Origin: a virus
Lineage: Duplodnaviria > Caudoviricetes
Reading direction: 5' to 3' (one strand)
Virus record (IMG/VR): IMGVR_UViG_3300028833_005986
Location: 32,001 to 96,000 of that record
Length of the DNA stretch: 64,000 nucleotides
The notes beneath the pieces are model-generated. The model did not search any database and was not told the origin of the DNA. It saw only the letters and a program-made list of their open reading frames with translations. Below are positions 35,687 through 60,929 of this stretch, piece after piece. How positions within the stretch are numbered: position 1 is the stretch's first letter; each line of letters starts with the position of its first letter. The position numbers and the translations under genes are program-made.

Positions 35687-36686
35687 TAATTATATTGTTC
35701 TAATAACCATAATGCATCAACTTTTTCATTAATAAATCTATTTCTTAATCCATTAATTACACTTAAATTATAAGCGTGACAGAAATTATAAGTTGATCGA
35801 TAATATCCTAAATTATAATCCCAATATACAGAATCGCATTCACCAATTAAAAAGTTATAAATTTCAATAATAATATCATTATCAAAATATGCACTATCAA
35901 TATAGGATAAATTAGGATATTCAAATATATCTTCATTTACATATTCTAATAAGCTAATACATCCAGAATTGCCATTTTGAATCGCACGAGCAAAAATTAC
36001 ACTTTGCATTGCAAATGAATGTTTATCTATATTAAAATATTTAACTTTTAAACGCTGTAACACAGGATAATAATATTGACTTAATGCAAATTCATCTTGT
36101 AGCTTTTCAAAATTACCGGGATCAACATTACCTAATTGCTGCCACAATTTAATAAATTTATTACTATTAATAGTATACTTATTTAATTCTTTACCATAAT
36201 TCGCTAATCGAGGGTGTGAATAATTACATAACCATTGTACAAATTCATCTACTACTCCAACGGTAGATGAGAATTGATATTTCTAGTATATTTATTCAAT
36301 TTTTCTTTAAAAAAATTCTATATGTAATTAAATTATATTAGAATTTATTTGAAGAAAAATTGAATAAAATTATTAATCTATTTATATGAAATTAAATAGC
36401 ATATGACTATATCTTTATTAAAAGACTTTTAATAAATTTCGATATAATTAAATATATTTACTTATAATTAGTCGTTAGATAAATATTTATTATATTAATA
36501 AATATTTATTATTGATATATTAAATATTAATTATATCAATAATTATATATTATATTAATAGCATTAATATTTACCATAAGATTGTCCACCAATATCTCCA
36601 TAACCAGTAGAAACAAATCCTGGTCCGCGGCCAGAAGTTTCATATTTATTAATTAAATATGTAATAATTGGAATATATTCATTCAT
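35686..36686 (-). CDS. peptidoglycan hydrolase (VgrG3 C-terminal-like muramidase), spliced from exons 36686-36573 and 36282-35686 (236 aa)
   Basis: Spliced motif KYETSGRGPGFVSTGYGDIGGQSYG|KYQFSSTVG; later F..LQ.EF....YY.P, ARAIQNG, GLRNRF.NE. Confidence 0.85.
36283..36572 (-). ncRNA. group I-like intron, 290 nt
   Basis: P1 ATGGT/GCTAT (U.G); R CTAACGACTA, S AAGATATAGTCA; ends CTAG; restores the SYGKYQ motif. Confidence 0.92.
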
Positions 36687-37027: not shown

Positions 37028-37267
37028 TATATTAAAATATTACTTTATTAAAAAATAATTATATATAATAAAAAAAATGACTAAAGAAATTAAATCTCTT
37101 TAGCCTTTTTATGTGCTTATTTAAGTAAAATTCAATAATAATACTACTATTATCATTAACTCAGCATCTGAACTCTTAGTCTACTTATCACTATTCCTAT
37201 ATATGCTTTTTATATGACTTAACATATAATATAATCATGTTTTTAATTTTTAAATTATAACAATTAA

Positions 37268-40200
37268 TTAAAATGTTAATCTCCATGTACACTAAATAAT
37301 ATTGGACTATATAATTAATTAATAAAGTTATTATAGTCTCTGAAGAATATACAAATTCTTACTGATTAAATTATTATTAATTACTTTCAGTAATTTAAAC
37401 TTTTTATATAACTACTACATATATTAAATAGTTAATCTAGAACTTGCGTCTTTCTAATATATTATTATTTTAGCATATACTTAAAATATCTTATATATTT
37501 TATATAAGTTTAGATTATATCTTTTATATAATTAAATATAAACTATTATTATAATCGTTGTATATATAAATTATTCTTATATAATTTATATATTACTAAT
37601 TAATATTATTAATAATATTTTTAGTAAATAAATAATTTACGGAACAAAAATCTATTATAAGAATATAAAATTTTTATAATAATAAAAAACATCGTTCCAA
37701 ACTGGAAATACTTTCATTATTTTTTATTTGGACTATATCATATATAAAAATTATTTATATTAATATTACTAGTCTCTGATATGATTAATAATCATATACT
37801 GATTTATTTATTAAAAATAAATATTCCAGTAATTTTATTATTTTATAATCGTAAAGTATTTAAAATATAATCAAAATTTTATCAGCGATTGAACATATAA
37901 CCAGTATCTTTTCCAGCTCCATTTTCCCAGGCAGAAGCATTTCCGCCAAATATAGCCATTTCAGTAATTGGACCTACAGCTTCATCTTCATTAAATGTTG
38001 TTACTAATTTTAGAATATTCGTATTATAATCTTGCTGATAATTTTTAAAATATCTTCTCATCTTAAAAATTCATACCAATTAAGCTCTCTTGTTATTATA
38101 TATGTACTAATATATAATCAAATCAATCTACACTTCGCAGCGTATTCTAAAATCAATTCAATATATACTTATCTCTTATATATATCATAATCAATTCTAT
38201 ATTGATTCTTGAACTCTAATTCGTATTGGCGCTACCAGCGCACCTCTACAGTATAAAGTAGATATATCTTCATATAAATTATGTATATCTCGACTTTCTA
38301 TTAAGTCTTCATAAGATATCTTTCTACTTATAACCTTACCTTTATTTAACTGTTTTATTTTTTTATATTCTTTATTTAATAAATATTTCTTTAATATATT
38401 CAAAGATCCATTCATATCTGCATTTATTAATATACCATTCTTGGACTTATAAAGTCCTCTCTTTATTCTCTTACCTGCAAAGTGTTTCTTTTTTAATTCT
38501 ATCTTATCATTTATTGTTCTTAATACATATCCTAATTTTTCATCTTTTTTATATGATAATATATAATCATTATCTAAGAAAGAAGCTTTAGATGTAAATG
38601 ATTCTTCTTGAAGAACAAATTTAATATTATTCATCTTACATCTATATTCTAAATTATCTTTTATCTTACTAAATGGTATACTAGTAAAGAATTGATTATT
38701 TTTCTTACCTAAATTAGATTTTCTTTGAAAGTCATTGTTCCATCCTAATATAATAATTTTTATATTATTTTGTAAAGAATAATCTATTAATTTTTTACAA
38801 ATCTTATGGATATAATAATTAACTTTATTATTTCTTTTCTTTAATATATTATACATCTTTTTTGTATATCTTAATTTTTTATTAGTATTTTTCTTTTGTA
38901 ATTTACTAATAATTCTATTATATCCTTGATTTATAGATTTCAATTCTTTACCATCTAATATAAAACTATTAATTTTTTTCTTAGAATTATGATTATAATT
39001 AATACAAGTCATTAAATTATTAATGCCTAAATCAATTGATAAATAATTATTATTAACTTGTATATTATCATTAATTTCTATTTCATAGGTATAATGAATT
39101 TCAAAAATTTTACCTTTATATTTAGGAATTACTTGAATATATTTTATTTTTTTATCTTTTAATATAGCAGGTATTTTTATTCTAAATCTATCTTTACTTT
39201 TTAAAGTTAAATTATATTCTTTTAATATTTGATAACTTAGAGGAATAATCCATTCATTATTTTTATTTATATGAATTTTATTAGTTGGAAGTATAAAATA
39301 ATCATTTTTGTCTAAATATTTAGGAATATTACATTTTAAACCTTTTTGTTTTAAAGTGAAGAAAGATTTAAAATTTTCATCTATTATATATAAGATATTA
39401 CAACTACAATTAGCTTCTAATAATTTATAATTAATATTATTTTTAATACTATGATAATTATCTATATAATTTAAATATTTACCAATATTAAAGAAATATT
39501 GTCTAATATTATATAGAGCAGAATTATATAGATTTTTACTATATTTACATAATTTTTTAAATAATATATATAATTGTTTATATTTATATATACTGACTTG
39601 TTGTTTAACAGTTAAATAACATTTTTCTTTTTTATTGATATTATTTTTAAGATTTCTACTAATAATAATAATTCACATCTTTTTAATATTATAAATTTTA
39701 ATAATATTAACAGTTTAAATAACTATTAGTAATAGGATTAGATATTTTAAAACCTATTAAGCTTTGATTTTAATTAAAGCATAGATTATATCATTAATAT
39801 ATAAGATATATAATTAATGATTCTATAGAAATATACAATATTAATCGTTAGATAGATATATATTGATAAAATATATATTTATTATTGATCTATTATAAAA
39901 TTATAAATATTCCAATAAATAATTAAATTATCAAACCATTGTATGGTTCATCGTTTTCATCAACAAAACACCACGAAGTAAATTTCTTACGATATAATTC
40001 ACCTACTAATCTAGTATCAGTTAATTGTGCTTTATGTTCCACCTCTGGATCCATAATATCCCATAATACTGTATTAACTTTATTATTTACACGGTCATAT
40101 GGCTGATCTTCGTGTTCGAGAATACCAACGCCAACAGCTAAAACCTGTAAGCCTGTAATTTTTTGAATATCACTAACAGTAGTACCAGTTTCCGATTCCA

Positions 40201-40399
40201 TTACTGGTGCCATTCTCCAAGCCATTAATTCGCTAGCTTTATTAACAATTAAATTTTTTGTAGTTTGTTCTTTTGTAATTTCTTTAGCGCCTTCAATTTT
40301 ACCTGTTTTAGGATTATATTCTCCGCCTTTGTGCATAACCATTGAAATTTCGCCTTTAATTACATGCTGTTTTTTATAATCTTCATTATTTATACTCAT
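37268..40399 (-). CDS. baseplate/tail-associated structural protein, 5 exons (40399-39935, 38034-37885, 37714-37694, 37453-37428, 37289-37268; 227 aa)
   Basis: Spliced product NLIVN..LAVGVG..L.GELYRK..G|QDYNTNIL...F.E.EAVGPITEMAIFGG...MFNR|KVFPVWN|KDASSRLTI|TWRLTF* forms one coherent phage structural fold. Confidence 0.82.
37290..37427 (-). ncRNA. group I-like intron, 138 nt
   Basis: P1 TAACTAT/GTAGTTA (U.G); R TCAGAGACTA, S TATAGTCC; ends TAGTG. Confidence 0.85.
37454..37693 (-). ncRNA. group I-like intron, 240 nt
   Basis: P1 TGGAAC/GTTCCG (C-G at the splice site); R CAACGATTA, S AAGATATAATCT; ends TTAG. Confidence 0.8.
37715..37884 (-). ncRNA. group I-like intron, 170 nt
   Basis: R TCAGAGACTA, S GATATAGTCC; ends AATG; candidate P1 AATCGC/ACGATT (C.A). 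Confidence 0.8.
38035..39934 (-). mobile_element. IStron-like element 1: group I intron core + tnpB + right end/omegaRNA, no transposase
   Basis: R CTAACGATTA, S GATATAATCT; tnpB downstream of the core; ends AAAAATTATCAG; highly similar to 45905-47822; removal restores the host frame. 5' end placed by alignment and frame. Confidence 0.85.
38197..39672 (-). CDS. tnpB: IS607-type TnpB RNA-guided nuclease (~491 aa; frame open to ATT codons at 39672, ORF track truncated it at 39012)
   Basis: YLTVKQQ, SKNLYN, IDLG, QEESFTSKASFLD, KRGLY, INADMNG, RG.L..P.RI; collinear with 46076..47557. Confidence 0.88.
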   Translation of the reverse strand: MIIISRNLKNNINKKEKCYLTVKQQVSIYKYKQLYILFKKLCKYSKNLYNSALYNIRQYFFNIGKYLNYIDNYHSIKNNINYKLLEANCSCNILYIIDENFKSFFTLKQKGLKCNIPKYLDKNDYFILPTNKIHINKNNEWIIPLSYQILKEYNLTLKSKDRFRIKIPAILKDKKIKYIQVIPKYKGKIFEIHYTYEIEINDNIQVNNNYLSIDLGINNLMTCINYNHNSKKKINSFILDGKELKSINQGYNRIISKLQKKNTNKKLRYTKKMYNILKKRNNKVNYYIHKICKKLIDYSLQNNIKIIILGWNNDFQRKSNLGKKNNQFFTSIPFSKIKDNLEYRCKMNNIKFVLQEESFTSKASFLDNDYILSYKKDEKLGYVLRTINDKIELKKKHFAGKRIKRGLYKSKNGILINADMNGSLNILKKYLLNKEYKKIKQLNKGKVISRKISYEDLIESRDIHNLYEDISTLYCRGALVAPIRIRVQESI

Positions 40400-40570
40400 A
40401 TATTTTTATCTCCATTCTTTTATTTTTTAATATAATATTTATTAATAAGATAATTTGTTAATTAGATTATTAATTTATCTATATAATAATATTAATATAA
40501 TTAACGAATTAATTAATAAAAAATAATATTAATTTATTAAATAACTAATAAATTAAGTAATATTAATTTG

Positions 40571-42162
40571 TTATATAGCTAACAAATTAATAAATTCAAG
40601 TTCTTTACGTAATTGCTTATTTTCTTCTATTAAAGCTTCAATTCCTTTAGTATGAATATCCATATTATCTTGAGTATCTTTTACATAAGTATTAAAATTA
40701 CTTAATTGTAAATATTTCGTATTTAATTCATTCGTTCCTAAAAATGCTTGATAGCGCTGATCTTGTATATCATTCCAATAAATTACATTAGCAAATTTAC
40801 CGTCTAATGATACTCTATCGGATATAGAACTAAAATTTTGCCAATTAATTGCTCCATAAATATTATGATAAGCATTATAGCCGGTTGTGTTTAATCTAGC
40901 GACTTCAAATAAAGGTATTGCATAAACATATCCATCCATAGTATTAAAGATATTCATAGTTTCTGCGCCTTTACCTGCAATAAACATATGCGGGTCATTA
41001 AACGGTTCAAAATCAGCCGTAGTATATATATAATCTAAATTATCATAAACTTTTGGACCTTGCTGATATTTTTTAAAATATCTTTTCGTATTTTAAAAAT
41101 TTATTAAGCTTTAATGATTTAGTTAAAGCATAGATTATATCATTAATATATAAGATATATAATTAATGATTCTATTAGTATATACCTATAAAATTAATCG
41201 TTAAATATATATTTATTATTAATAAATATATATTATTGATCTATTATAATGGTTTATAAATATATCAATAAATTTTAAATTAATAATCCCTTATAAGGAT
41301 GTATATCTAAATCTTCAATACGATTTTTACCGTTATCATAATGTAATTCATGTTTATCTTCAATTGCTCTAATACACCATTGTAATTGAATTCTAGTTGT
41401 GCTGGGAATAGAAATACGATGATCAATCATTTCAAATGCTACTGAATCATTAGCTATACCACCAAATAAAGGAATGTCATCTCTAAATTTAATTTCTTTA
41501 AACCAAAATTCTAATATTACTAAATCTTGGCGTCTAACAGATGTAGCTGTAGGTGGAGGTAAATATACAACTAATCCATCGCGTTTACTTGATTCAATTC
41601 TTACAATATGTCCATGTAAAACTGCATGAAATGGATTAATAATAAAATTATTTAATTCTAATTGTGAGCCAATAGTACTAGCATCTTGAATAATATGATC
41701 ATGTTTATCTCTAATTAAAAATTGATGTGCTTTATATGCGCCTAATTCATCAGTATTAGCATTATTTGAAATTTGTAAGCATCCTGAATGCGTCATAGTT
41801 CTAATTAATTTTGCTCGTTCTTCAATCTGAATCCATTGAAGTTCCTTTATATATTTATATATTTAAATATACTTTTTAAATACATTTTTATTAAAAGTCT
41901 TAAAATAAAAATGGTTAGACTATATCTTTTTTTAAAAATAAAAATTATTATATAGTCGTTGAATATATAGATTTTTATATAAAAATTTATATATTACTAA
42001 ATAAATTGATTATTTTTAGTAATTAAATAATTCGATTGGAACAAATTTATTCCATTCATCTTCAATTAAGAAAGCATCTGATCCACCTTTTAATGACAAA
42101 AAATTAACAGTAGGATCAAATTTACCTTTCGCATTTCGTGAAAAATCAGGAAAATATGCCAT
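40571..42162 (-). CDS. virion structural protein, 3 exons (42162-42049, 41844-41287, 41062-40571; ~387 aa), paralogous to the N-terminus of 27189-31424
   Basis: IEDEWN|ELQWIQ, RQDLVILEFW, STTRIQLQW, YAIPLFEVARLN, DGKFANVI..NDIQDQR. Confidence 0.82.
41063..41286 (-). mobile_element. 224-nt tnpB-less intron of the same family as the IStrons
   Basis: Shares the 5' core (ATAATAGATCAATA, TAACGATTAA, AGAATCATTAATTATATATCTTATATATTAATGATATAATCTATGCTTTAA) and the 3' end (AGATATTTTAAAAA.TATCAG). Confidence 0.85.
41845..42048 (-). ncRNA. group I-like intron, 204 nt
   Basis: P1 TGGAAT/GTTCCA (U.G); R TCAACGACTA, S AAGATATAGTCT; ends AAAG. Confidence 0.92.
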
Positions 42163-44701: not shown

Positions 44702-45276
44702 GTGGAAAACTGCCTTCTACTTTTAGCATGTCTATTATTTTCTTTTGCAGGTAATTTAATTCAACAAATTTATAATAATAAAGTATATTCATCTATTCAA
44801 TCAATGCTATATCATGCATTAGTATCATCCGCGGCTGGATTTATTTTTTCCTTAATATTAAGTGAATTTATATTAAATCCATTATTATTAATTTTTTTAT
44901 CTGGCGTTGGCGGATTTTTAGGCATAACTTATAGAGTGTCTAATAATTAATTTAATTTATTAAAATAATTTTTATAAAATTGATTAATATTATATTAATA
45001 TATGATATTAATATAATTAACGACTAATTATATAAAAAGTAGATTTTATTGAAAAAATATAATGTAATTATATAGTCTTATACTTATATGAATAATATAA
45101 GCAAATATATTAATCAAGGATTAACATTTATTTTACAGCATAAATTTAATATTGAACTTAACGATTTATTACACAAAAACAATACACAGTATATGTTAAT
45201 ATATAATAATAGCATATTAAAAATATTACAGCAACCACATAAACATATACATTTACAAATTATAAAAAAAGAATAA
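44702..45276 (+). CDS. holin-like membrane protein, spliced (exon 44702-44925 + exon from 45102 or 45120)
   Basis: Three hydrophobic segments, LSGVGGFLG motif; both candidate 3' sites join GGC AT| in frame with 45088..45276. Confidence 0.65.
44926..45119 (+). ncRNA. group I-like intron, 176 or 194 nt (3' end G45101 or G45119)
   Basis: P1 TTAGGCAT/GTGTCTAA (U.G); R TAACGACTA, S TATAGTCT. Confidence 0.82.
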
Positions 45277-45649: not shown

Positions 45650-47888
45650 TTATATATAATTATCAATTATATTACCAATATAATAATAATTATTATAATT
45701 TAATAAATAATTTTCACTATATGTATTTTCACGATCAATTGTTGTTTTAAAATCGTTTATATATGTTTCAATGTCATCTATACCATTTATACCTTTCATT
45801 GATTTTTTAATATCATCAATCTGAGATTGTGCTTTATGCTGCTGATAATTAATAAATTTATATTCACTAATCTCATTAACTTGATGTATACGTTTATATT
45901 TATTCTGATAATTTTTAAAATATCTTCTCATCTTAAAAATTCATACCAATTAAGCTCTCTACTTCTCAATATATTAATCACTTAATATATCTAAAATCAA
46001 ATCAATCTACACTTCACAGTATATTCTAAAATCAATTCAATATATACTTATCCTTTATATATATCATAATCAATTTCATATTGATTCTTGAGCTTTAATT
46101 CGTATTGGCGCTACCAGCGCACCTCTACAGTATAAAGTAGATATATCTTCATATAAATTATGTATATCTCGACTTTCTATTAAGTCTTCATAAGATATCT
46201 TTCTACTTACGACCTTACATTTATTTTTATTTAACTGTTTTATTTTTTCATATTCTTTATTTAATAAATATTTCTTTAATATATTCAAAGCACCATTCAT
46301 ATCTGCATTGATTAATATACCATTCTTGGACTTATAAAGTCCTCTCTTCACTCTCTTACCTGTAAAGAGCTTCTTTCTTAATTCTACTTTATTATCTATT
46401 GTTCTTAATACATATCCTAATTTTTCATCTTTCTTATATGATAACATATAATCATTATCTAAAAAAGATGCTTTAGATGTAAATGATTCTTCTTGAAGAA
46501 CAAATTTTATATTATTCATTTTGCATCTATATTCTAAATTATCTTTTATTTTACTAAATGGTATACTAGTAAAAAATTGATTATTTTTTCTACCTAAATT
46601 AGTTTTTCTTTGAAAATCACTATTCCAACCTAATACAATAGTTTTTATATTATTAGCTAAGCAATAATCTATAAGTTTTTTACAGGTCTTATGAATATAA
46701 TAATTAATTTTATTATTTCGCTTCTTTAATATATTATACATCTTTTTTGTGTATCTTAATTTCTTATTAGTATTTAATTTTTGTAATTTACTAATAATTC
46801 TATTATATCCTTGATTTATAGATTTTAATTCTTTACCATCTAATATAAAACTATTAATTTTTTTATTAGAATTATGATTATAACTAATACAAGTAAATAA
46901 ATTATTAATACCTAAATCAATAGCTAAATAATTATTATTAACTTGTATATTATCATTAATTTCTATTTCATATGTATAATGAATTTCGAATATTTTACCT
47001 TTATATTTAGGAATAACTTGAATATATTTTATTTTTTTATCTTTTAATATAGCAGGTATTTTTATTCTAAATCTATCTTTACTTTGCGAAGTTAAGTTAT
47101 ATTCTTTTAATATTTGATAACTTAAAGGAATAATCCATTCGTTATTACTATTAATATGAATTTTATGCGTAGGTAATATAAAATAATCATTTTTATCTAA
47201 ATATTTAGGAATATTGCATTTTAATTTTTTTTGTTTTAAAGCGAAGAAAGATTTAAAATTTTCATCTATTATATGTAAAATATTATTACTACAATTAGCT
47301 TCTAATAATTTATAATTGATATTATTTTTAATATTATGATAATTATTATTATAATTTAAATATTTATTAGTATTAAAGAAATATTGTCTAATATTATATA
47401 AAGCAGAATTATATAAATTTTTACTATATTTACACAATTTTTTGAATAATATATATAATTGTTTATATTTATATTTACTAACTTGTTGTTTAACAGTTAA
47501 ATAAAATTTTTCTTTTTTATTGATATTTTTTTTAAGATTTCTACTAATAATAATCAACTACCTTTTAATATTAATATAATAATATAAATAGATAATGATT
47601 ATTAAAAAGTAATAGGATTAGATATTTTAAAATCTATTATACTTTAATATTTAATTAAAGCATAGATTATATCATTAATATATAAGATATAAGATATATA
47701 ATTAATGATTCTATAATAATATACAATATTAATCGTTAGATAGCTATATATTGATATAATATATAGCTATTATTGATCTATTATGAGATTATAAATATTC
47801 CAATAAATAATTAAATTATTAAACCATTATTAGGTTCAGGCATATTAAATAATAACCATGAAGTATCTGTTATATACATATTCATCAT
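45650..47888 (-). CDS. small tail-fibre-associated protein, spliced from exons 47888-47823 and 45904-45650 (106 aa)
   Basis: AGGAGG RBS; MMNMYITDTSWLLFNMPEPNNG|NKYKRIHQVNE in frame. Confidence 0.7.
45905..47822 (-). mobile_element. IStron-like element 2: group I intron core + tnpB + right end/omegaRNA
   Basis: Same architecture and termini as 38035-39934. Confidence 0.87.
46076..47557 (-). CDS. tnpB: IS607-type TnpB RNA-guided nuclease
   Basis: AIDLG, VLGWN, QEESFTSKASFLD, INADMNG; no C4 zinc finger. Confidence 0.92.
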   Translation of the reverse strand: MIIISRNLKKNINKKEKFYLTVKQQVSKYKYKQLYILFKKLCKYSKNLYNSALYNIRQYFFNTNKYLNYNNNYHNIKNNINYKLLEANCSNNILHIIDENFKSFFALKQKKLKCNIPKYLDKNDYFILPTHKIHINSNNEWIIPLSYQILKEYNLTSQSKDRFRIKIPAILKDKKIKYIQVIPKYKGKIFEIHYTYEIEINDNIQVNNNYLAIDLGINNLFTCISYNHNSNKKINSFILDGKELKSINQGYNRIISKLQKLNTNKKLRYTKKMYNILKKRNNKINYYIHKTCKKLIDYCLANNIKTIVLGWNSDFQRKTNLGRKNNQFFTSIPFSKIKDNLEYRCKMNNIKFVLQEESFTSKASFLDNDYMLSYKKDEKLGYVLRTIDNKVELRKKLFTGKRVKRGLYKSKNGILINADMNGALNILKKYLLNKEYEKIKQLNKNKCKVVSRKISYEDLIESRDIHNLYEDISTLYCRGALVAPIRIKAQESI

Positions 47889-47919: not shown

Positions 47920-50900
47920 TTATGCTTTATAAATGCGATATCTAATAGTAAAAGTATCTGATGGTGTTTCTTTTGCATATAAATAAAAGCATCCCGATGC
48001 TGAAACTGTAAAGTCTGCTAATCCTGCTGCACGAGCTATATTTGTATTACTTGCTAATTCTACTTCAACTACATCATTAGCTGTTAAATTACTAACATTT
48101 ATTTGATATCGCCGTGCATATGATATATTATTAATAGTAGTTGCGGTGGTATACCAAGCACCAGCAGTTGTAGAACTGGTAGTAGTTGTTTTTGCAATAG
48201 TTACTGCCGAAGCATATGTATATTTAGTCATATAAGTAGTATCAATTCGCTGTCCTTTAATATCTTGCAGTGCTTGTAAAGCATTAATACCCATAGGTTG
48301 GAATTCGCCATTTACGTACTGCCAATATTGATTATATAAAAGATTTATATTCATTTGATATGTAGAATATGATCTACCAACATATAAATAGGTATATCCG
48401 TCTTCACTAGTAGGAGCTGTAGTAGTTAAAATATCAGAATGTACAGTAAAAGTATTACCAGATAAAGTACCTTTTAAATATACTGGTTTCTTTTCTGCAA
48501 ATGTTCTTGATGCATTATCAACTATTGTTTGCATATTAGCACCAATACTAATCCAATACAAACTTGTACTCAATGCAGCTGCATCAGCCACCGTTGATCC
48601 ATTAAATAATACTGGATGTCGAATATCAAAAGTATCTCCTGCATTAAGTTCTTTATATGCTATGCCATCAGTTGTACCTACAAATCTTGCAGCAGCAATA
48701 GCACCATCAGCAGTTGCTACTGGATTCGCTATTCTTATTCTATCATAATAGTTGGCATCATAATCAGCAAGTACAAACCAATAAGTACCATTATAAATTA
48801 ATGGAACATAATAATTCGCACTATATTGTGTTGTTAATCGAGTTGTAGAGTATCTATAAATTGCTTTTGCGCCTGTTGTACTTCCACCTGAAAGTGTAAG
48901 ATTTAATGTAGCATTACCAGAACTCGAATATGGTAATTTATAAATAATCATTTTACCAGTATATAGAGCAGCATCTTTTGTTACGCCAGTCCAAGCACCT
49001 GTAACTGCTGTTTGAGTACCTACAATATATTCTATAGTGTGTTCACTAATCTTTTTACCATTAGAATCATTAGTAGCTGTAGCAGCTGTTCCGCTAATAT
49101 TAATCCCCCAAGTACCTGAAGCATCTCCACCTGTTCTACTAGGAACTGATAAAGTTGTTCGCATTGCTGCTACATCTGCATCATCTAATAACGTTCTTGC
49201 TATAGCTGTTAATGGTGTAGTTGCATATGTATTAGAAGCAGTTGTATAAATCATTTGATTTGCAGAAGTAGCTAACCCACTAATAGAAGTTAAAGCTGCA
49301 TGAGCACTTTGTTTAGTAGTAATAGCATTATTTAATGTAGTATATACACTAGCATCTTTATTAATAGCATTAGCAATTTCTTCCAAAGTATCTAATGTAC
49401 CAGGTGCCGCACCAATTAAATTATTAATAGCATTATCGACAAAAGCTGTAGTAGCTACTTGTGTAGTCTTAGTGCCTAATGGAGCTGTTGAAGCTGTTAC
49501 CGTTCCTGTAAATGCAGCACCAGCCAGTTTAGCATAAGTAGTATTAATTGGTTTATTATCGCTGTCATTAGTTGCTTTTGTTGCAGAATCAGCATTACCT
49601 GTTAAATTAGCTTTAATTGTCGCAGGCAATTTAAGAATAATATTAGAAGATCCATCAAAACTAGTAACAGCACCTGTATTAGCAGCAGTAGAATCTTGAA
49701 TACTAATAGATTTTGCAACAGCTAATTTAGTAGCAGTATCAGCATTGCCGTCTAAACTTGCTTTTATAGTCGCTGGTAATCTTATATTTAATACAGAAGT
49801 ATTACTTCCATCAAAACTAATAGCCGTACCAGTATTCGCTCCAGAACTATCTTGAATATTAATAGATCTTGCTGTAGCTAATTTAGTAGCTGTAGTTGCA
49901 TTACCAGTTATACTACCAGTAAAAGATTGTGCAATTACTCCCGCAGGAAATGTAACGTTATTATTTATATCCCAAGTATAGAATCTGTTATGACTAACTA
50001 TATTGTGATCAGAAAACCACCAGTTACCACCATAAAAACGAATATCATTTAATGATGGCGAACCATAACTAGCATTTACTGTTGTTTGTTTAAAAGTCAT
50101 ACGCAATGCATACATATTTCCTGATTGCGAAGCAGATTGATTAAAACCTTGTACTTGATTGAAATAAATTATATTATTTCCTGACCATCCGCTTAATGGC
50201 TTCTCAGTAAATAAATTAATCCAAGTATCAGTATCTTTATCTGCAAATTTTTGCCAATCAAGCGTTACATTCCAATTATTACCATTAGTGGAGCCCCAAA
50301 TATATAAAGCATTTACACTAACATATCTACCTGAAGGCATAATAGTAATACGTAGCTGATTATTAAGACTATTATCTGCTTTTACAGATGCTTTACCTAA
50401 GAACATGTTAGTAGTACGTAATTCCATAAAGATAGCCTTTTTTTGATCATCAGTTAAACCATAATCAATCCATGTTTTGCCGCCATCGCGTGAATATTCT
50501 ACAATAGTTGTCGCGCCACTAATACCAAATGTTTTATTAGATGCCCATGCTCCTACGCGATTACCAGTAATCCAGTCTAAATTACCTGCTATACTTTCTG
50601 TTGTGGTATTAATTGATGATGGAGTAATATTACCAGATATATTAGTCGCTTGAATATTAGTGGCTGATAGTGTAGATGTAGCGGGATTAACTTTTACTCC
50701 AGAGCCAAAAATTGCTGTATTCGCACCACGATTTGTTGATGCATTTTCTGTAGATACTAATAATACTGGGTATGTTGCATCCGCAGTAGATACATTTTGC
50801 GTCATTAGTGTATCAGTATTAGTATCGCCGTATAATGTAGTAGTTGTACCATTTATAGTAATTTTACCTACTTCAGTACCAGAAGTCTTTGTTTGTGTAA

Positions 50901-53900
50901 AACTAACAGCATCTGCAGAAGCAGTAATACCATCTAATTTAGATTTATCTGCGGCAGACATTAATCCAGCAATACTAGTTGTTGCTTCATGCTCAGTACC
51001 AGTAGAATTAATAGTAATTACACCATTAGAAGCCGTAACTGTAGTAGAACCAGTACCTTTAATATTAATGGCATTTCGTACAGTAGAATCATCAATAACA
51101 TTTAAATGCACATTACCATTAGTAGCAACTGCATTAGCTGTTCCGTTATTAGCACTAGCTGCTACTAAATGTGTGGTATAATGCGTATTAGTATCTGTAG
51201 TTGGAGGCGTATAGCCTAATGCAGTGGTAACATTATCTTTAGTTAGACTAATCGTACCTGAAGAATTAGTAATATTACTACCTATTTTAACTAATCCTAA
51301 ATTACTACCAGACGCAGCAGAATATGTCGTATCTTGTGTAGTAATAGTACCAGTATCTCCATCACCTTTAGTATAAGTGATAGTCTTACCAGATACAGAT
51401 AAGTCTTTAATATAAGTATCAACGATATCTTGATTTTTACTATCTTTAGTAGCAGAAGTAGCCGCACCTGATAAGTTACCTGTAAAAGTAGTAGCTGTTA
51501 CTTTAGTTGCTAATAATTCACCAGTTGATGGATTGATTTTTATATCTTTACCAAATTGTGCAGCATTAGCCGAAATATTACTTGTCGCATTAGCTGTAGC
51601 CGCAATTAATACTGGATATGTTGAATTTACAGTAGAAATATTTTGTGCGACTTTAGCATCCGTATTTGCTGCGGCAGCTGCAGCTTTAGCAAAAGCTGTT
51701 GTAGCAATTTGTGTATCATTAGTAGCGATTGCCGCTGTAGGAGCAGTTGGCGTTCCAGTTAATTCAGGCGATGCTAATGGTGCATAAGTAGTATTAATTT
51801 GATTACCGACAGAATCACTAGTCGCTTTTGTGGCTAGACCACTGAAATTTTTAGCCGTAATAGTACCTGCCGACGGATTAATAGTAATTGCAGAATTAAA
51901 ATAAGTACCACTAGTAGTATCTGTTACCGCGGTGCTATTTTTAAATAATACTGGATATGCAGAATTAACAATTGATATAGCAGTTTGTGTTACATTTTGA
52001 TCCTCAGTAGTAATAGTTCCGGTAGTATTATTACCTTTAGTATATGTAATAGTTTTACCTGAAATTGCTAGGCCTACAATAGCATTAGCTTTAGCTACAT
52101 AAGTATCGGCGATATTATGCCCACCACTATCATTTGTTGCATTAGTTGCAGAAGTCGCATTACCAGATAAATTACCAGAAAAAGTAGTAGCATATAAAGT
52201 GCCAGTAGATGGATTAATTTTAATAGTTTTACCAAAAATTGCAGCTTTTGCACCTTGATCTGTTGTAGCATTAGGTGTAGAAGTAGCTAATATTGGATAT
52301 GTAGAATTAGTAGTAGATACACTTTGTGTTACAAATGTATTTGTATCAGGTGTAGTAATAGTACCTGTAGTTCCATTACCTTTAGTATAAGTAATAGTCT
52401 GTCCAGAAATAGCTAATCCTGTAATAGCATTAGCTTTAGTTTCATAAGTAGTAGCAATATTATGTCCTGCACTATCTTCAATAGCTGCATCTGCAGTGCC
52501 TTCTAAATCGCCAACAAATTTAGATGCAATAATACTTTTATTGTTTGGATTAATTTTAATATCTTTACTAAAAATTGCAGTTGTAGTTGCATTAGTACTT
52601 GCATTTACTACTGACGATGCTAATAATGGATAAGTAGAATTAGTAGTCGAAACGCTTTGTTGCATTTTTTCATCTTTAGTAGTTAAAGTGCCAGTTGTAT
52701 TATCTCCGCGTTTAAAAGTTAATGTCTGATTTGATAGAGTTAAATCAACAATTCCTTCAGTCTTTTTAACATAAGTCGTGTTAATCGGTTTATCATCACT
52801 ATCGTTTGTCGCTTTTGTAGCAGCTGTGGCAGTAGAAGCATTACCGTTTAAAGTAGCTTTAATAGTAGAAGGTAATTTAATATATAATGTAGAAGTATTG
52901 CTACCATCAAATTTAATTTCTGTACCAATATTAGTACCATCAGCATCACTAATATTAATAGATCTCTTATTAGCTAATTTAGTTGCAGTAGAAGCATTAC
53001 CTTCAATAGTAGCTGTAATCGTACCAGGTAATTTAATGGTACCAGCTGAAGACCCATTAAAATTAAATGCAGTACCAGTATGTGATCCGTCACTATCACT
53101 TATATTTATATTTCTTCCTGTTTCTAAAGTAGTAGCAGTAGCAGCATTACCGGTACATTTTGCTGCAGTATCTGCCGTAGTTGCTGATGCTGCTTTTTCA
53201 CTTTTACCTAAAGCATCAATAGTTGTACGCATATCAGAAGCTGTAGCATCATCTAATAAATTCCTTGCTAATGCAGTTAATGGCGCAGTTTTATATGTAT
53301 TAGAAGCTGTCGTATAAATCATTTGATTTGCAGACGTAGTTAAATTACTTATAGAAGTTAATGCTGCATGGGCTGATTGTTTTGTAGTAATTGCATTATT
53401 TAATGTATTATATACATCTTGATCATTATTGATTGCATCTGCTAATTCTTTTAATGTATCTAATTCTGCTGGAGCTGCTCCAATTAAATTTTTAATAGCA
53501 TTATCTACAAAAGCTGTAGTAGCTACTTGTGTAGTCTTAGTACCCAATGTAGCTGTAGGAGCAGTTGGTGTTCCAGTTAATTCTGGTGAAGCTAATGGTG
53601 CATAAGTAGTATTAATTTGATTACCAGAAGAATCATTAGTAGCATTAGTAGCAGTATCAGCATTACCTGTTAAATTAGCTTTTATAGTACTAGGTAATTT
53701 AATAGTACCATTTGTCGATCCGTCAAACTCAATAGCAGTACCGGCATTAGTATTATCAGCATCACTAATATTAATAGATCTTTTATTAGTTAATTTAATA
53801 GCTTTATCTGCTGTACCAGTTAAATCAGCTTTTATAGTACCAGGTAATGCAATAGTTACTGCTTGACTACCATTAAAACTAGTACCTGCTCCAATATTTG

Positions 53901-54777
53901 TTGCATCCGCATCACTTATTTTTAAAGTACGAGAATTTTTTAATGTAGTGGCAGTAGCGGCATTACCAGTAGTATCTATACTAGCTGTACCACTTAATTT
54001 AGTAGCATCTAATGACGTAACAGGAATAGTAATATCTAAAGTACCATTAAATTCTGTAGCTGTACCAGTAGCGGCGCCAGAAAGTGCTATTGTTTTTTTA
54101 TTAGCTAATTTTGTAGCTGAATCTGCATTACCAGTTAAATCAGCTTTAATAGTAGCTGGTAATTTTAAAGTAACATCTGCAGAACCATTAAAAGTACTAG
54201 CAGTACCAGCATTTGTGCTATCATTATCATTAATAACAAAATTTCTAATATTCTTTAATACAGTGGCAGTAGAAGCATTACCATCAATTTCAGCTGTAAT
54301 GGTTTTTGGTAATGTAATAGTACCATTAGCAGAACCGTCAAAATTAATAGCTGTACCTGTATGCGTTTCGCTATTATCTTGAATATTAATAGACCTGCTA
54401 TTAGTTAATGTTGTAGCAGTAGTAGCGTTGCCAGTTAAATCAGCTTTAATAGTAGAAGGTAATTTAAGATTAATATTTGATCCGCCGTTAAAACTAGTAG
54501 CAACGCCTGTATTTGTTTTTGATGCGTCGCTAATAGTAATATCTCTACTAACACTTAAATTACTTGCAGCTGTAGCTGTACCATCTGCGGGAAGAAATGA
54601 ACCTACGATAGAATTATTATAAAATTCAGAAATTTTGCTATCAATTCGATTATCTGTAGCATTTGCAAAATCTGTTATTTGTGAACTTTCAGTTTCTGGA
54701 TGTAATACTTTATATATAGCTTTATTATTCAAATCGCGATCAGCAATTACATGTATTTTTCCTTTAATTTCTGCCAA
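47920..54777 (-). CDS. long tail fibre protein (2285 aa, repetitive)
   Basis: Many GNA.TA.KL...R.I.I.D...G..FDGS.N..I.LP.TI.A repeats; PTAPTA..T..TQ.ATTAF and LDTL.E.A.AI fibre motifs. Confidence 0.9.
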   Translation of the reverse strand: MAEIKGKIHVIADRDLNNKAIYKVLHPETESSQITDFANATDNRIDSKISEFYNNSIVGSFLPADGTATAASNLSVSRDITISDASKTNTGVATSFNGGSNINLKLPSTIKADLTGNATTATTLTNSRSINIQDNSETHTGTAINFDGSANGTITLPKTITAEIDGNASTATVLKNIRNFVINDNDSTNAGTASTFNGSADVTLKLPATIKADLTGNADSATKLANKKTIALSGAATGTATEFNGTLDITIPVTSLDATKLSGTASIDTTGNAATATTLKNSRTLKISDADATNIGAGTSFNGSQAVTIALPGTIKADLTGTADKAIKLTNKRSINISDADNTNAGTAIEFDGSTNGTIKLPSTIKANLTGNADTATNATNDSSGNQINTTYAPLASPELTGTPTAPTATLGTKTTQVATTAFVDNAIKNLIGAAPAELDTLKELADAINNDQDVYNTLNNAITTKQSAHAALTSISNLTTSANQMIYTTASNTYKTAPLTALARNLLDDATASDMRTTIDALGKSEKAASATTADTAAKCTGNAATATTLETGRNINISDSDGSHTGTAFNFNGSSAGTIKLPGTITATIEGNASTATKLANKRSINISDADGTNIGTEIKFDGSNTSTLYIKLPSTIKATLNGNASTATAATKATNDSDDKPINTTYVKKTEGIVDLTLSNQTLTFKRGDNTTGTLTTKDEKMQQSVSTTNSTYPLLASSVVNASTNATTTAIFSKDIKINPNNKSIIASKFVGDLEGTADAAIEDSAGHNIATTYETKANAITGLAISGQTITYTKGNGTTGTITTPDTNTFVTQSVSTTNSTYPILATSTPNATTDQGAKAAIFGKTIKINPSTGTLYATTFSGNLSGNATSATNATNDSGGHNIADTYVAKANAIVGLAISGKTITYTKGNNTTGTITTEDQNVTQTAISIVNSAYPVLFKNSTAVTDTTSGTYFNSAITINPSAGTITAKNFSGLATKATSDSVGNQINTTYAPLASPELTGTPTAPTAAIATNDTQIATTAFAKAAAAAANTDAKVAQNISTVNSTYPVLIAATANATSNISANAAQFGKDIKINPSTGELLATKVTATTFTGNLSGAATSATKDSKNQDIVDTYIKDLSVSGKTITYTKGDGDTGTITTQDTTYSAASGSNLGLVKIGSNITNSSGTISLTKDNVTTALGYTPPTTDTNTHYTTHLVAASANNGTANAVATNGNVHLNVIDDSTVRNAINIKGTGSTTVTASNGVITINSTGTEHEATTSIAGLMSAADKSKLDGITASADAVSFTQTKTSGTEVGKITINGTTTTLYGDTNTDTLMTQNVSTADATYPVLLVSTENASTNRGANTAIFGSGVKVNPATSTLSATNIQATNISGNITPSSINTTTESIAGNLDWITGNRVGAWASNKTFGISGATTIVEYSRDGGKTWIDYGLTDDQKKAIFMELRTTNMFLGKASVKADNSLNNQLRITIMPSGRYVSVNALYIWGSTNGNNWNVTLDWQKFADKDTDTWINLFTEKPLSGWSGNNIIYFNQVQGFNQSASQSGNMYALRMTFKQTTVNASYGSPSLNDIRFYGGNWWFSDHNIVSHNRFYTWDINNNVTFPAGVIAQSFTGSITGNATTATKLATARSINIQDSSGANTGTAISFDGSNTSVLNIRLPATIKASLDGNADTATKLAVAKSISIQDSTAANTGAVTSFDGSSNIILKLPATIKANLTGNADSATKATNDSDNKPINTTYAKLAGAAFTGTVTASTAPLGTKTTQVATTAFVDNAINNLIGAAPGTLDTLEEIANAINKDASVYTTLNNAITTKQSAHAALTSISGLATSANQMIYTTASNTYATTPLTAIARTLLDDADVAAMRTTLSVPSRTGGDASGTWGINISGTAATATNDSNGKKISEHTIEYIVGTQTAVTGAWTGVTKDAALYTGKMIIYKLPYSSSGNATLNLTLSGGSTTGAKAIYRYSTTRLTTQYSANYYVPLIYNGTYWFVLADYDANYYDRIRIANPVATADGAIAAARFVGTTDGIAYKELNAGDTFDIRHPVLFNGSTVADAAALSTSLYWISIGANMQTIVDNASRTFAEKKPVYLKGTLSGNTFTVHSDILTTTAPTSEDGYTYLYVGRSYSTYQMNINLLYNQYWQYVNGEFQPMGINALQALQDIKGQRIDTTYMTKYTYASAVTIAKTTTTSSTTAGAWYTTATTINNISYARRYQINVSNLTANDVVEVELASNTNIARAAGLADFTVSASGCFYLYAKETPSDTFTIRYRIYKA

Positions 54778-59394: not shown

Positions 59395-60929
59395 ATGGCT
59401 ATTATTTTAGAAGCTAAAGATGATCTTAATCAGTTTATATTAACAGATTATGAACGCAAACTTATTTATCGCCTCCGCGTTTTACTAAAAGATTTACCAG
59501 ATGATGTTCTTAGAACATTAAATACGTTAGTCGAACAAAATCGCGGAATTAATATTATTAATACTAAACTACATTTTAGAAATTATATTAATTTTTTTAT
59601 GCCGCGAAAAATTATAAAAATTTCAAAGAAATACTAATATATTATTTGAATTATTAATAAAATTATTTAATTAATAATTTCTATATAAGCAACGTATATT
59701 ATTTATAATTAATAAAAAAGAAATATACTAATCTTTTTATATAAAAAGAAAATATATAATAAAATATTTATAAATATAAATGGAACGATGGACAGATCAA
59801 ATGCTAATAAATTACATATATCAATCTTTAGGATATATTAATGCAGCGCCTTTACAAACAGGATATGATTTAACAAATATACCTACAGCATGGGAAAGCC
59901 CACTATTAACCGGTGCAATGGTATTCTCACTTTTAGCAGAAGCTATATTACAGACTGGAAACATCATATAAAATAAATATATTGCTTGTATAGCAATATT
60001 AGTTTTAAATTATTCTCTAGTCAAATAAATTAAAATAATTTCGAGAAATTATTCAATAAATTTAATTCGAAAATATATTATATATATTATATAATAATTG
60101 CAACGCATAATTGAATTTAATATAAACATAAAAAATTATGCTAATCTAAAAAGATAATTTTTAGATAATAATTAATATAATTATTATTTAATACAAAAAG
60201 AAACATTTTCCTATTCAGATAATGGAATCAGTCAAAAATTAAAGGCTGAAATAAAATTTAATTAATTACGAGAATAATATATCTATATTTATTCGTAACT
60301 TATATAAGTTCAAAGACTATATATTAAAATTATTAAAATAAAAAATAGTCTAATTATATAATGCTTTCAATTTCTAATGCTGGACAGTACCAATCTCTAG
60401 CGAACGGATTACTATCCGGCTTTGAGCAACAAATAAAATCTTTAAAAGCATATACAAATATGCTTATACAATTAATTAATTTAATGAAAACACATATATT
60501 ATGTATATATTAAAATAATATTTATTTTTAAATAAATCTTATTTCAGAGCATATAAATATTAATTTATAATAAATGATTTATGCCATTCTATATTAAAAT
60601 TTATAGAATTATATAATAATAAATATATTTTCTTCTTAATTCAAAAAATTTGAGGCCAAATCCGGCTGGAATTTTTCATAAGTTCTTGTATAAATATATT
60701 ATTGCTAAAAATATATATTATATATCAATTAGCATTTATTTAAATATAAATATATTATTTATAAATCAACGACTATATAATATTTATTAATAAAAATATA
60801 GTCTTATTTTAGCATTTGTTAAAAATATTAAATTTATAAATTTAATAAAAAATTCAAAATTGATATGGAGGAATGAATTCAGGAGTCCGAATTCGCTCAT
60901 ATTCCCCGCGAATGTGGGTTTATAGATAA
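59395..60929 (+). CDS. neck/head-completion-like protein, 6 exons (59395-59547, 59783-59960, 60201-60232, 60364-60453, 60653-60672, 60863-60929; 179 aa)
   Basis: Spliced: ..RLRVLLKD..NRG|ERWTDQML..INAAP..LQTG(K/E)TFSYSDNGIS|LSISNAGQYQ..KAY|RPNPAGI|YGGMNSGVRIRSYSPRMWVYR*. Functional label is inferred from the FSYSDNGISL-type motif. Confidence 0.78.
59548..59782 (+). ncRNA. group I-like intron, 235 nt
   Basis: P1 TCGCGG-A / G-CCGCGA (59601-59607); R CAACGTATA, S AATATACT; ends AATG. Confidence 0.82.
59961..60200 (+). ncRNA. group I-like intron, 240 nt (ends uncertain by 1 nt)
   Basis: P1 GACTGG/CTAGTC; R CAACGCATA, S TTATGCT. Confidence 0.78.
60233..60363 (+). ncRNA. group I-like intron, 131 nt
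   Basis: P1 TCAGT/GCTGA (U.G); R TCAAAGACTA, S AATAGTCT; ends AATG. Confidence 0.85.
60454..60652 (+). ncRNA. group I-like intron, ~199 nt
   Basis: P1 AAGCATAT/ATATGCTT; R TCAGAGCATA, S TTATGCC; ends TTTG. Confidence 0.78.
60673..60862 (+). ncRNA. group I-like intron, 190 nt
   Basis: P1 GGAAT/GTTCT (U.G); R TCAACGACTA, S ATATAGTCT; ends ATTG. Confidence 0.85.

Follow-up and report, generated by a model that had tools for sequence, protein, structure and literature searches.

We analyzed a 64-kb window of viral DNA from the record IMGVR_UViG_3300028833_005986, whose minus strand carries, from 40399 to 37268, a phage gene homologous to gp190 of Bacillus phage G (phrog_5417) and broken up by four insertions. 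The phage is an AT-rich jumbo phage of about 20% guanine plus cytosine (GC) content that is related to phage G. An open reading frame (ORF) scan of the minus strand returns two pieces of the gene, a 158-codon ORF starting at 40399 and a separate 59-codon ORF, which match phage G gp190 in tblastn searches at 8e-17 and 5e-10. Against the 156-position phrog_5417 profile, exon 1 matches positions 9-87 and exon 2 matches positions 93-134, while the last 22 or so profile positions are absent from every called ORF. Translation of 37720-37268 supplies them as three short in-frame islands: KVFPVWN, KDASSRLTI, and TWRLTF followed by a stop. Joined, the five exons (456 + 150 + 21 + 26 + 22 nt) make a coding length of 675 of 3132 nt and specify a 224-residue protein that aligns end to end with uninterrupted metagenome homologues of 216-222 residues. 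We consider it very probable that this is a functional baseplate-type gene and that four group I-type splicing events would assemble its message from one transcript.

A gene in five exons

The last 22 residues of the joined product are identical to those of uninterrupted homologues at 20 of 22 positions (P0006), 19 of 22 (P0005) or 18 of 22 (P0019 and P0020), and to the C terminus of phage G gp190 at 14 of 22. The residues encoded by the micro-exons occur in the same order as in the uninterrupted homologues, with no gaps. Because identity is this high, colinear and gap-free, the match lies far beyond chance. An earlier reading of this DNA (the original prediction) had scattered these 22 residues over micro-exons of 21, 26 and 22 nt separated by introns of 170, 240 and 138 nt. 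Both translation and the empty sites in relatives show these lengths to be exact, and the alignment to uninterrupted homologues that it had named as a check, run here, finds the C-terminal sequence present. In all, the gene product has 24 database homologues, the best at 3.7e-93. A related-locus search with the exon 1 protein as a single query returned zero loci; with an alignment as the query it returned 19 homologues, all of them uninterrupted.

The exon boundaries could be placed to the nucleotide. In L010, a related locus with 95% protein identity, the site of intron 1 is empty, exactly, which puts the boundaries after GAA CCA (39944) and after ...UAUCAG (38035). Nine bases past 39944 are missing from the L010 empty site and are conserved as the 5' end of three other copies of the inserted element. 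Hence, exon 1 ends at 39944, and the coding sequence is therefore 675 nt rather than 684. An alternative exon 1 end at 39935 was rejected on the L010 empty site and the shared element ends, and the equivalent choice breaks the frame of one further copy, copy C. The figure of 684 coding nucleotides in the original prediction is corrected accordingly. The 1.9-kb IStron that it placed upstream of the micro-exons held up in its content, with a full TnpB frame and group I-type boxes, but not in its boundary: the element begins at 39943, and exon 1 had been drawn 9 nt too long. At the end of exon 2, the final R is kept in homologues as part of FNRK, and the junction is fixed by this conservation. 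Removing the inserts at these boundaries gives a full-length in-frame protein in 4/4 alleles (the window, L010, L033 and L012). Database proteins of relatives (P0002, P0013 and P0022) stop short at introns, which bears out the claim that ORF callers miss the small exons.

What does the gene encode? A predicted model of homologue P0006 (predicted local distance difference test score, 74; predicted template modeling score, 0.75) resembled baseplate proteins of the A511 gp105/phi812 arm/T4 gp8 type in a Foldseek search, with probability 1.0, an E value of 4.5e-4 and template modeling scores of 0.38-0.50. VIA-align gave the same model Z scores of 8.8-8.4 to A511 gp105 and the phi812 arm, and about 7.0 to the baseplate chains of T4 and Klebsiella phage KP1; these Z scores lie near the tool's stated grey zone. 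The top seven VIA-align rows were all tail or baseplate proteins. A profile search of the gene product against solved structures gave zero sequence matches. The gene is present in a single copy within the structural module, and its neighbors are large tail-type ORFs. Because of the fold similarity and these neighbors, the label "structural gene" used in the original prediction is reasonable, and a baseplate-type structural protein is a reasonable assignment from the predicted fold. Conservation across the family is highest in the C-terminal strand of the protein.

The terminator-like hairpin downstream of exon 5 (Table 1) is the sole one on the minus strand from the start codon to that point, with none inside the gene, and L010 and L012 have comparable hairpins 3' of the gene. 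A single transcript would run from about 40413 to the terminator at 37079, through all five exons.

Table 1. Coordinates in the window of the split gene, its predicted intron elements and other R/S-box cores
Feature	Position	Strand	Details
Shine-Dalgarno-like GGAG	40410..40413	minus	10 nt 5' of the ATG at 40399; read from sequence
Exon 1	39944..40399	minus	456 nt, residues 1-152, ends ...DENDEP; ORF, phrog_5417 and gp190 matches, L010 empty site
Intron 1	38035..39943	minus	1909 nt, IStron-like element
Intron 1 guide UGGUUU	39938-39933	minus	pairs with exon GAACCA 39949-39944
Intron 1 R box	39850-39840	minus	motif read
Intron 1 S box	39792-39783	minus	motif read
TnpB reading frame, 3' part of intron 1	38200..39672	minus	491 codons between stops; Pfam domains
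Intron 1 3' end ...UAUCAG	terminal G at 38035	minus	empty site and shared copy ends
Exon 2	37885..38034	minus	150 nt, QDYNTNILKL...GYMFNR
Intron 2	37715..37884	minus	170 nt, without ORF
Intron 2 guide	37858-37847	minus	UACUUU pairs with exon 3 start; CGAUU pairs with exon 2 end
Intron 2 core	P4 37831-37826 with 37802-37797; P6 hairpin 37796-37780; R box 37779-37770; S box 37738-37730; terminal G 37715	minus
Exon 3	37694..37714	minus	21-nt micro-exon, KVFPVWN
Intron 3	37454..37693	minus	240 nt, without ORF
Intron 3 guide	37650-37641	minus	UUUUU and GUUCC
Intron 3 core	P4 37627-37621 with 37599-37593; R box 37560-37550; S box 37521-37512; P9 hairpin 37508-37490; terminal G 37454	minus
Exon 4	37428..37453	minus	26-nt micro-exon, KDASSRLT and 2 nt of Ile codon
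Intron 4	37290..37427	minus	138 nt, without ORF
Intron 4 guide	37421-37409	minus	UAUGUA pairs with exon 5 start; GUAGUUA pairs with exon 4 end, U.G at splice site
Intron 4 core, 5' elements	candidate P3 37403-37398 with 37329-37324; P4 37393-37388 with 37364-37359; P6 37360-37343	minus
Intron 4 core, 3' elements	R box 37343-37333; S box 37312-37304; terminal G 37290	minus
Exon 5	37268..37289	minus	22-nt terminal micro-exon: third base of Ile codon, TWRLTF, TAA
Terminator-like hairpin (intrinsic type)	37079..37105	minus	12 pairs and U run; about 160 nt past exon 5 stop codon
R/S cores, examples	3546-3720, 36373-36552, 41101-41278, 41886-42036
R/S cores, further examples	44943-45109, 47633-47813, 60026-60835

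Relatives, empty sites and selection

Intron content differs among relatives. L010 is without the 1.9-kb element and has introns 2, 3 and 4 at the same positions and in the same phase as the window. It has an extra 184-nt intron after ...ASEWN, and its last 35 residues are spread over four micro-exons of 39, 21, 26 and 22 nt (region L010:1266-2082). In L033 (three samples), the sites of introns 1, 2 and 4 are empty, intron 3 is kept, and another intron lies early in the gene. L012 has exact empty sites for introns 2 and 4, together with introns at site 3 and upstream, and L011 has a larger insert at the intron 3 site. That site is filled in five assemblies: the window, L010, L033, L012 and L011.

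We compared the exons of these alleles for signs of selection. Between the window and L010, which have introns 2-4 in common, the ratio of nonsynonymous to synonymous substitution rates (dN/dS) was 0.05 at a synonymous rate (dS) of 0.55; between the window and L033 or L012 the ratio was 0.12-0.18. In the micro-exon codons, each pair of alleles differs by 2-12 synonymous versus 1-3 nonsynonymous changes, and the synonymous ones include Arg AGA to CGT and AGA to CGG. No exon has a frameshift or stop in any of the four independently assembled intron-bearing alleles. We conclude that the split gene is, as far as sequence can tell, functional and under strong purifying selection.

Perhaps the gene is nevertheless dead, a pseudogene with inserts that resemble miniature inverted-repeat transposable elements and are never removed? 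The record's classification is that of a provirus fragment with 34% completeness, and repeated elements are abundant. However, the low dN/dS was obtained between two alleles that both carry introns 2-4, the exons are open in all four alleles, the inserts hold splice guides complementary to their own flanking exons, and a single-copy baseplate gene in a structural module is at stake. We find a dead gene very improbable and rejected it on the selection, the open exons and the exon-matching guides. The five-exon gene of the original prediction is instead borne out by homologue colinearity, by the empty and shared intron sites in relatives and by purifying selection.

Further insertion sites were seen in the same gene. 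A more distant relative, L038 (61% identical), has a group II intron without an ORF, about 690 nt long (L038:2657-3342), which splits FPV from W one codon ahead of the intron 3 site and matches Rfam RF02004 at 117 bits and RF00029 at 55 bits. Additional IStron-type cores lie after WDIMDP (L036:4360-4500) and after GGEYNP (L033:115-394, without tnpB). Two shortened database proteins, P0021 and P0023, suggest two more intron sites, judged from the proteins alone.

Group I features of the small introns

Within the first 55 nt of each small intron lies a guide in which the stretches for P1, the pairing with the upstream exon, and for P10, the pairing with the downstream exon, are contiguous. The intron 4 guide makes 13/13 pairs, which was reached by 2/2000 shuffles. 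The intron 2 guide makes 11/13 pairs (23/2000 shuffles), and its L010 orthologue makes 12/13 (7/2000). The intron 3 guide, at 11/13 pairs, is not significant alone (255/2000 shuffles); in L010, L033 and L012, its GUUCC/GGAAC pairing is either retained or restored by compensation. All four introns end in G, as do all orthologues and paralogues examined, and the boundaries that reveal this were set independently by empty sites.

The introns also carry the marks of a catalytic core. Introns 2 and 4, which align at 74% and are paralogues, have the R box UCAGAGACUA and the S box AUAUAGUCC. The exact R box UCAGAGACUA occurs twice in the 64-kb window, once in each of these two introns. Intron 3 has a compensated version of P7, GAUUA/UAAUC. 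Across about 30 cores in the record, the variable position of P7 covaries (13 C:G, 14 U:A and 1 cross), and P7 covariation is seen between orthologous intron 3 copies as well. When RNAalifold was applied to eight intron 3-like introns from other genes, P7 was recovered with compensation and was the only helix recovered. P4 is formed by UACUGG/UCAGUA in intron 2, UUACUAA/UUAGUAA in intron 3 and UUACUG/CAGUAA in intron 4; it covaries among paralogues and between the window and L010 copies of intron 4 (UUGCUG with CAGCAA). Unconstrained minimum free energy (MFE) folds contain P4-P5, P6 and P7-P8 in 3/3 small introns, and in intron 3 they also contain P9 and the P1 helix. In intron 4, a P3 complementarity (AAAGUU with AACUUU) lies directly 3' of P7, and likewise in paralogues, by eye only. 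We take the R, S, P and Q strings found here to match the classical group I consensus.

A covariance model trained solely on introns of other genes (model R1), of low information content, has introns 4 (28 bits) and 3 (26.7 bits) as its best non-training matches, with E values of 0.006-0.009 on a 901-nt stretch. From the guides, the R/S and P/Q boxes, the terminal G and the covariation, we conclude that introns 2-4 are predicted ORF-less miniature group I introns.

Exon order and closeness by themselves would also suit a gene whose gaps are crossed without RNA splicing, by ribosome hopping of the T4 gene 60 type or by DNA excision before expression. However, the gaps of 138-1909 nt far exceed that of T4 gene 60, which is 50 nt. 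The junctions are without matching take-off and landing codons, the gaps hold conserved ribozyme-type boxes and covarying helices, and the same inserts are found in several DNA assemblies. On these grounds both hopping and excision were rejected, and we give them next to no credence.

Several results count against group I splicing and have to be weighed with the above. The R1 matches are weak, at 26-28 bits, and intron 2 was not recovered by R1. Rfam yielded no family at all over the window, over 3.8 kb or over a 641-nt stretch, the last searched up to E<=10, and its model RF00028 misses all four introns. Over the whole record, RF00028 finds only four sub-threshold S-box fragments elsewhere (model positions 219-251, best 17.3 bits), and the same Rfam run readily picks up the group II intron in L038. 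The helices are almost wholly A-U, and MFE z-scores are weak (-1.8, -2.5 and -0.4). P8 of intron 4 has at most 3-4 pairs. At the 5' splice site, a canonical U.G pair is found in intron 4 only; the others show C opposite A (intron 2), C-G (intron 3) or A-U (intron 1). A C-G pair at this position makes a poor substrate in Tetrahymena mutants. In orthologues of intron 3, the pair is U.G (L010 and L012) or C.A (L033). A degenerate scan of metagenome contigs for the spliced exon 2-3-4 junction gave 0 matches. Separately, alignments made with MAFFT and RNAalifold on four introns, and with MAFFT on ten, were unusable, and a blastn search of the intron block against the phage collection gave zero matches.

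We infer splicing from the colinear exons, the exact insertion boundaries and the group I marks, and the events could proceed as follows. Each intron would fold on its own core, and its guide would align both flanking exons, with P1 formed by the final 5-7 nt of the exon upstream and P10, directly beside it, by the initial 5-6 nt of the exon downstream. Guanosine bound in P7, at the R and S boxes, would attack the 5' splice site; in a second step, the bond that follows the terminal G of the intron would be attacked by the released end of the exon. Exon 3, at 21 nt, would pair through its first 6 nt with intron 2 (P10) and through its last 5 nt with intron 3 (P1); in exon 4, at 26 nt, the first 5 nt would pair with intron 3 and the last 7 nt with intron 4. 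Because the guides pair with both exon ends, each of these two micro-exons would be gripped on either side by a separate ribozyme.

A protein helper, or cooperation between introns 2 and 4, is a real possibility in view of how small and AU-rich the introns are and of their odd splice-site pairs. The introns could then be derived from group I introns but no longer autonomous, in need of a phage or host protein cofactor or of a neighboring related intron. Besides lengths of 138-170 nt, helices made of A-U pairs almost throughout and weak z-scores of the folds, this would fit the vestigial P8 and the missing P2 and P9 of intron 4, the noncanonical splice-site pairs in introns 1-3, the blindness of Rfam to the introns and the paralogy of introns 2 and 4 at 74%. 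Cooperation of similar tandem introns has been discussed for Twort I2/I3 (PMC10136302). However, all catalytic core elements (guide, a candidate P3, P4, P6, P7 and terminal G) are found in each intron, and no candidate maturase was identified. We hold a loss of autonomy to be possible but the less probable state of these introns. With similar reserve, we raise two ways in which the 138- and 170-nt introns might extend what is known. They might be complete, active group I ribozymes well under the roughly 200 nt of the smallest well-studied self-splicers, nearly all A-U, tolerant of C.A and C-G pairs and with a tandem grip on a 21-nt exon, or they might be a reduced class that needs a phage-encoded helper; in either case they might spread laterally, as near-identity across phages with diverged exons would imply, possibly mobilized in trans by TnpB elements of the same genome.

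Splicing might also be partial or alternative. An intron such as intron 3 could splice poorly, or the in-frame exon 3 could be skipped, to yield truncated or shortened forms beside the full one. The window has C-G at the intron 3 splice site versus C.A in L033 and U.G in L010 and L012, and exons 3 and 4 share an AAAG start. Exons of 23 nt in Twort orf142 and of 34 nt in the Coxiella 23S rRNA gene are known to be skipped (PMC10136302). However, purifying selection acts on the micro-exon codons, and no part of the family is more conserved than the C-terminal strand, so that the complete product has to be made. We think it unlikely that such forms are an appreciable outcome, and prefer full assembly of the message by four group I-type splicing events.

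The TnpB-carrying element, the intron swarm and known systems

Intron 1 joins a group I-type 5' part (P1 hairpin, R/S boxes and terminal G) to TnpB, in sense orientation and with precise boundaries. It is an IStron-like element. Its TnpB frame matches Pfam OrfB_IS605 at 2.3e-16 (profile positions 1-113/120) and a Cas12f1-like TNB domain, and tblastn finds homologues in Lak, phage G and Staphylococcus phages. TnpB is the only long frame of the element, which has no TnpA (ORF A); ORF A is missing from many described IStrons too (PMC4227781). Rfam did not recognize the ribozyme part of intron 1. There are at least four copies of the element in the 167-kb record, with 88-90% identity and shared ends, the other three in other genes. 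The site of intron 1 is empty in both L010 and L033. The TnpB frame is open over 491-498 codons in three copies: window 38200-39672 (minus), window 45887-47838 (minus) and genome 107900-109847 (plus).

In these three copies, the first 220 or so codons of the TnpB frame include zero ATG, GTG or TTG codons, and homology to other TnpBs begins near codon 18-41. Together, these two features suggest that the TnpB of the element may be translated from a noncanonical start codon. All four copies follow GA(A/C)CC(A/U), at window 39944-39949 and 47832-47838 and at genome 107901-107907 and 166199-166205. A guide that lies a few bases inside the element is complementary to this stretch, and in copy C the pairing is compensated (GACCC with GGGUU). 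The GA(A/C)CC(A/U) stretch may have a double role, as P1 helix and as TnpB target-adjacent motif.

IStrons described previously include CdISt1, BcISt1 and the elements of C. botulinum and phage c-st (PMC4227781; bioRxiv 10.1101/2023.11.20.567912). Like them, intron 1 couples a 5' part of group I type to a 3' part with TnpB (ORF B), is without ORF A as in many IStrons, and occurs in multiple copies with conserved ends and in sense orientation within a coding gene. Its 3' end, ...TCAG, is that of group A IStrons (PMC4227781). It differs in its jumbo phage host, in its target, GA(A/C)CC(A/U) rather than TTGAT or a GG-ending site, with A or U as the last exon base, in a TnpB without a canonical start codon and in a ribozyme part that Rfam does not recognize.

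The small introns belong to a swarm. About 33 R/S-box cores of the same intron type are found on both strands of record G000 (166,990 bp), roughly 1 per 5 kb. Several of these introns clearly interrupt nearby genes, for example the ORFs at 42016-42162 and 41275-41796, with a canonical U.G splice site, and introns related to intron 3 interrupt other genes of the record. Between window 37454-37693 and L033:922-1159, intron 3 shows 97% identity, with exons at 80%; between window 37715-37884 and L010:1492-1661, intron 2 shows 98%, with exons at 90%. Because the introns are more conserved than the flanking exons, recent lateral spread is indicated, and the ORF-less mini-introns were probably transferred recently between diverged phages.

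How unusual is this gene? The closest precedent is Twort orf142 of a Staphylococcus phage, whose three group I introns (IA2) leave an exon of 23 nt between the second and the third (Landthaler and Shub 1999, via PMC10136302). As far as that account goes, the two are alike in being small phage genes that hold several group I introns without ORFs, with IA-type R/S boxes and with a micro-exon of about 20 nt between two related introns. Unlike Twort orf142 as described there, the present gene holds four introns, and its micro-exons (21, 26 and 22 nt) number three in a row, or four in L010 (39, 21, 26 and 22 nt). At about half the usual size, its introns are almost pure A-U and go undetected by Rfam, with a TnpB IStron among the four, and their splicing is predicted from sequence.

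Jug phages, which are jumbo phages of the gut, have group I introns of about 206 nt on average, 18.5 per genome, and 37/76 of those tested were confirmed by RNA reads (PMC12880540). In zeta crAss-like phages, the MCP (capsid) gene is in five fragments (PMC7886860). As in these phages, a large genome here is rich in short group I introns, and essential and structural genes are broken up by them (PMC12880540, PMC7886860). The Jug and crAss-like introns were found by group I covariance models or endonuclease ORFs, whereas the present ones escape RF00028 and are shorter (138-240 nt). The phage also differs, being a relative of phage G with about 20% GC and, at about 33 R/S cores in 167 kb, a higher density.

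Apart from phages, fungal mitochondrial cox1 combines numerous group I introns with mini-exons that range from a few to some tens of nucleotides. Those introns are organellar, large, mostly LAGLIDADG-encoding and maturase-dependent; the present ones are viral, ORF-less and tiny.

Since the 23-nt Twort exon, the five-fragment crAss-like gene and the Jug intron swarms were known, the gene is an extreme case of a known phage habit rather than a new kind: three consecutive micro-exons, introns down to 138 nt and an IStron in the same gene. It has at least six verified insertion sites within 675 nt, a group II intron included. Because relatives differ in which introns they have, the gene is well suited to tracking intron mobility in jumbo phages. 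ORF callers and Rfam miss these exons and introns, so public protein sets hold truncated fragments and the conserved baseplate C-terminal strand is lost. Within about 800 nt, the locus packs three introns and three micro-exons into a compact natural test bed for the minimum size and AU limit of group I ribozymes and for how adjacent ribozymes share a 21-nt exon without skipping.

Over the whole 64-kb window, a scan found zero transfer RNAs. A 2285-residue ORF at 47920-54777 on the minus strand coincides with a rise in GC content to 33-35%, compared with about 20% elsewhere in the window.

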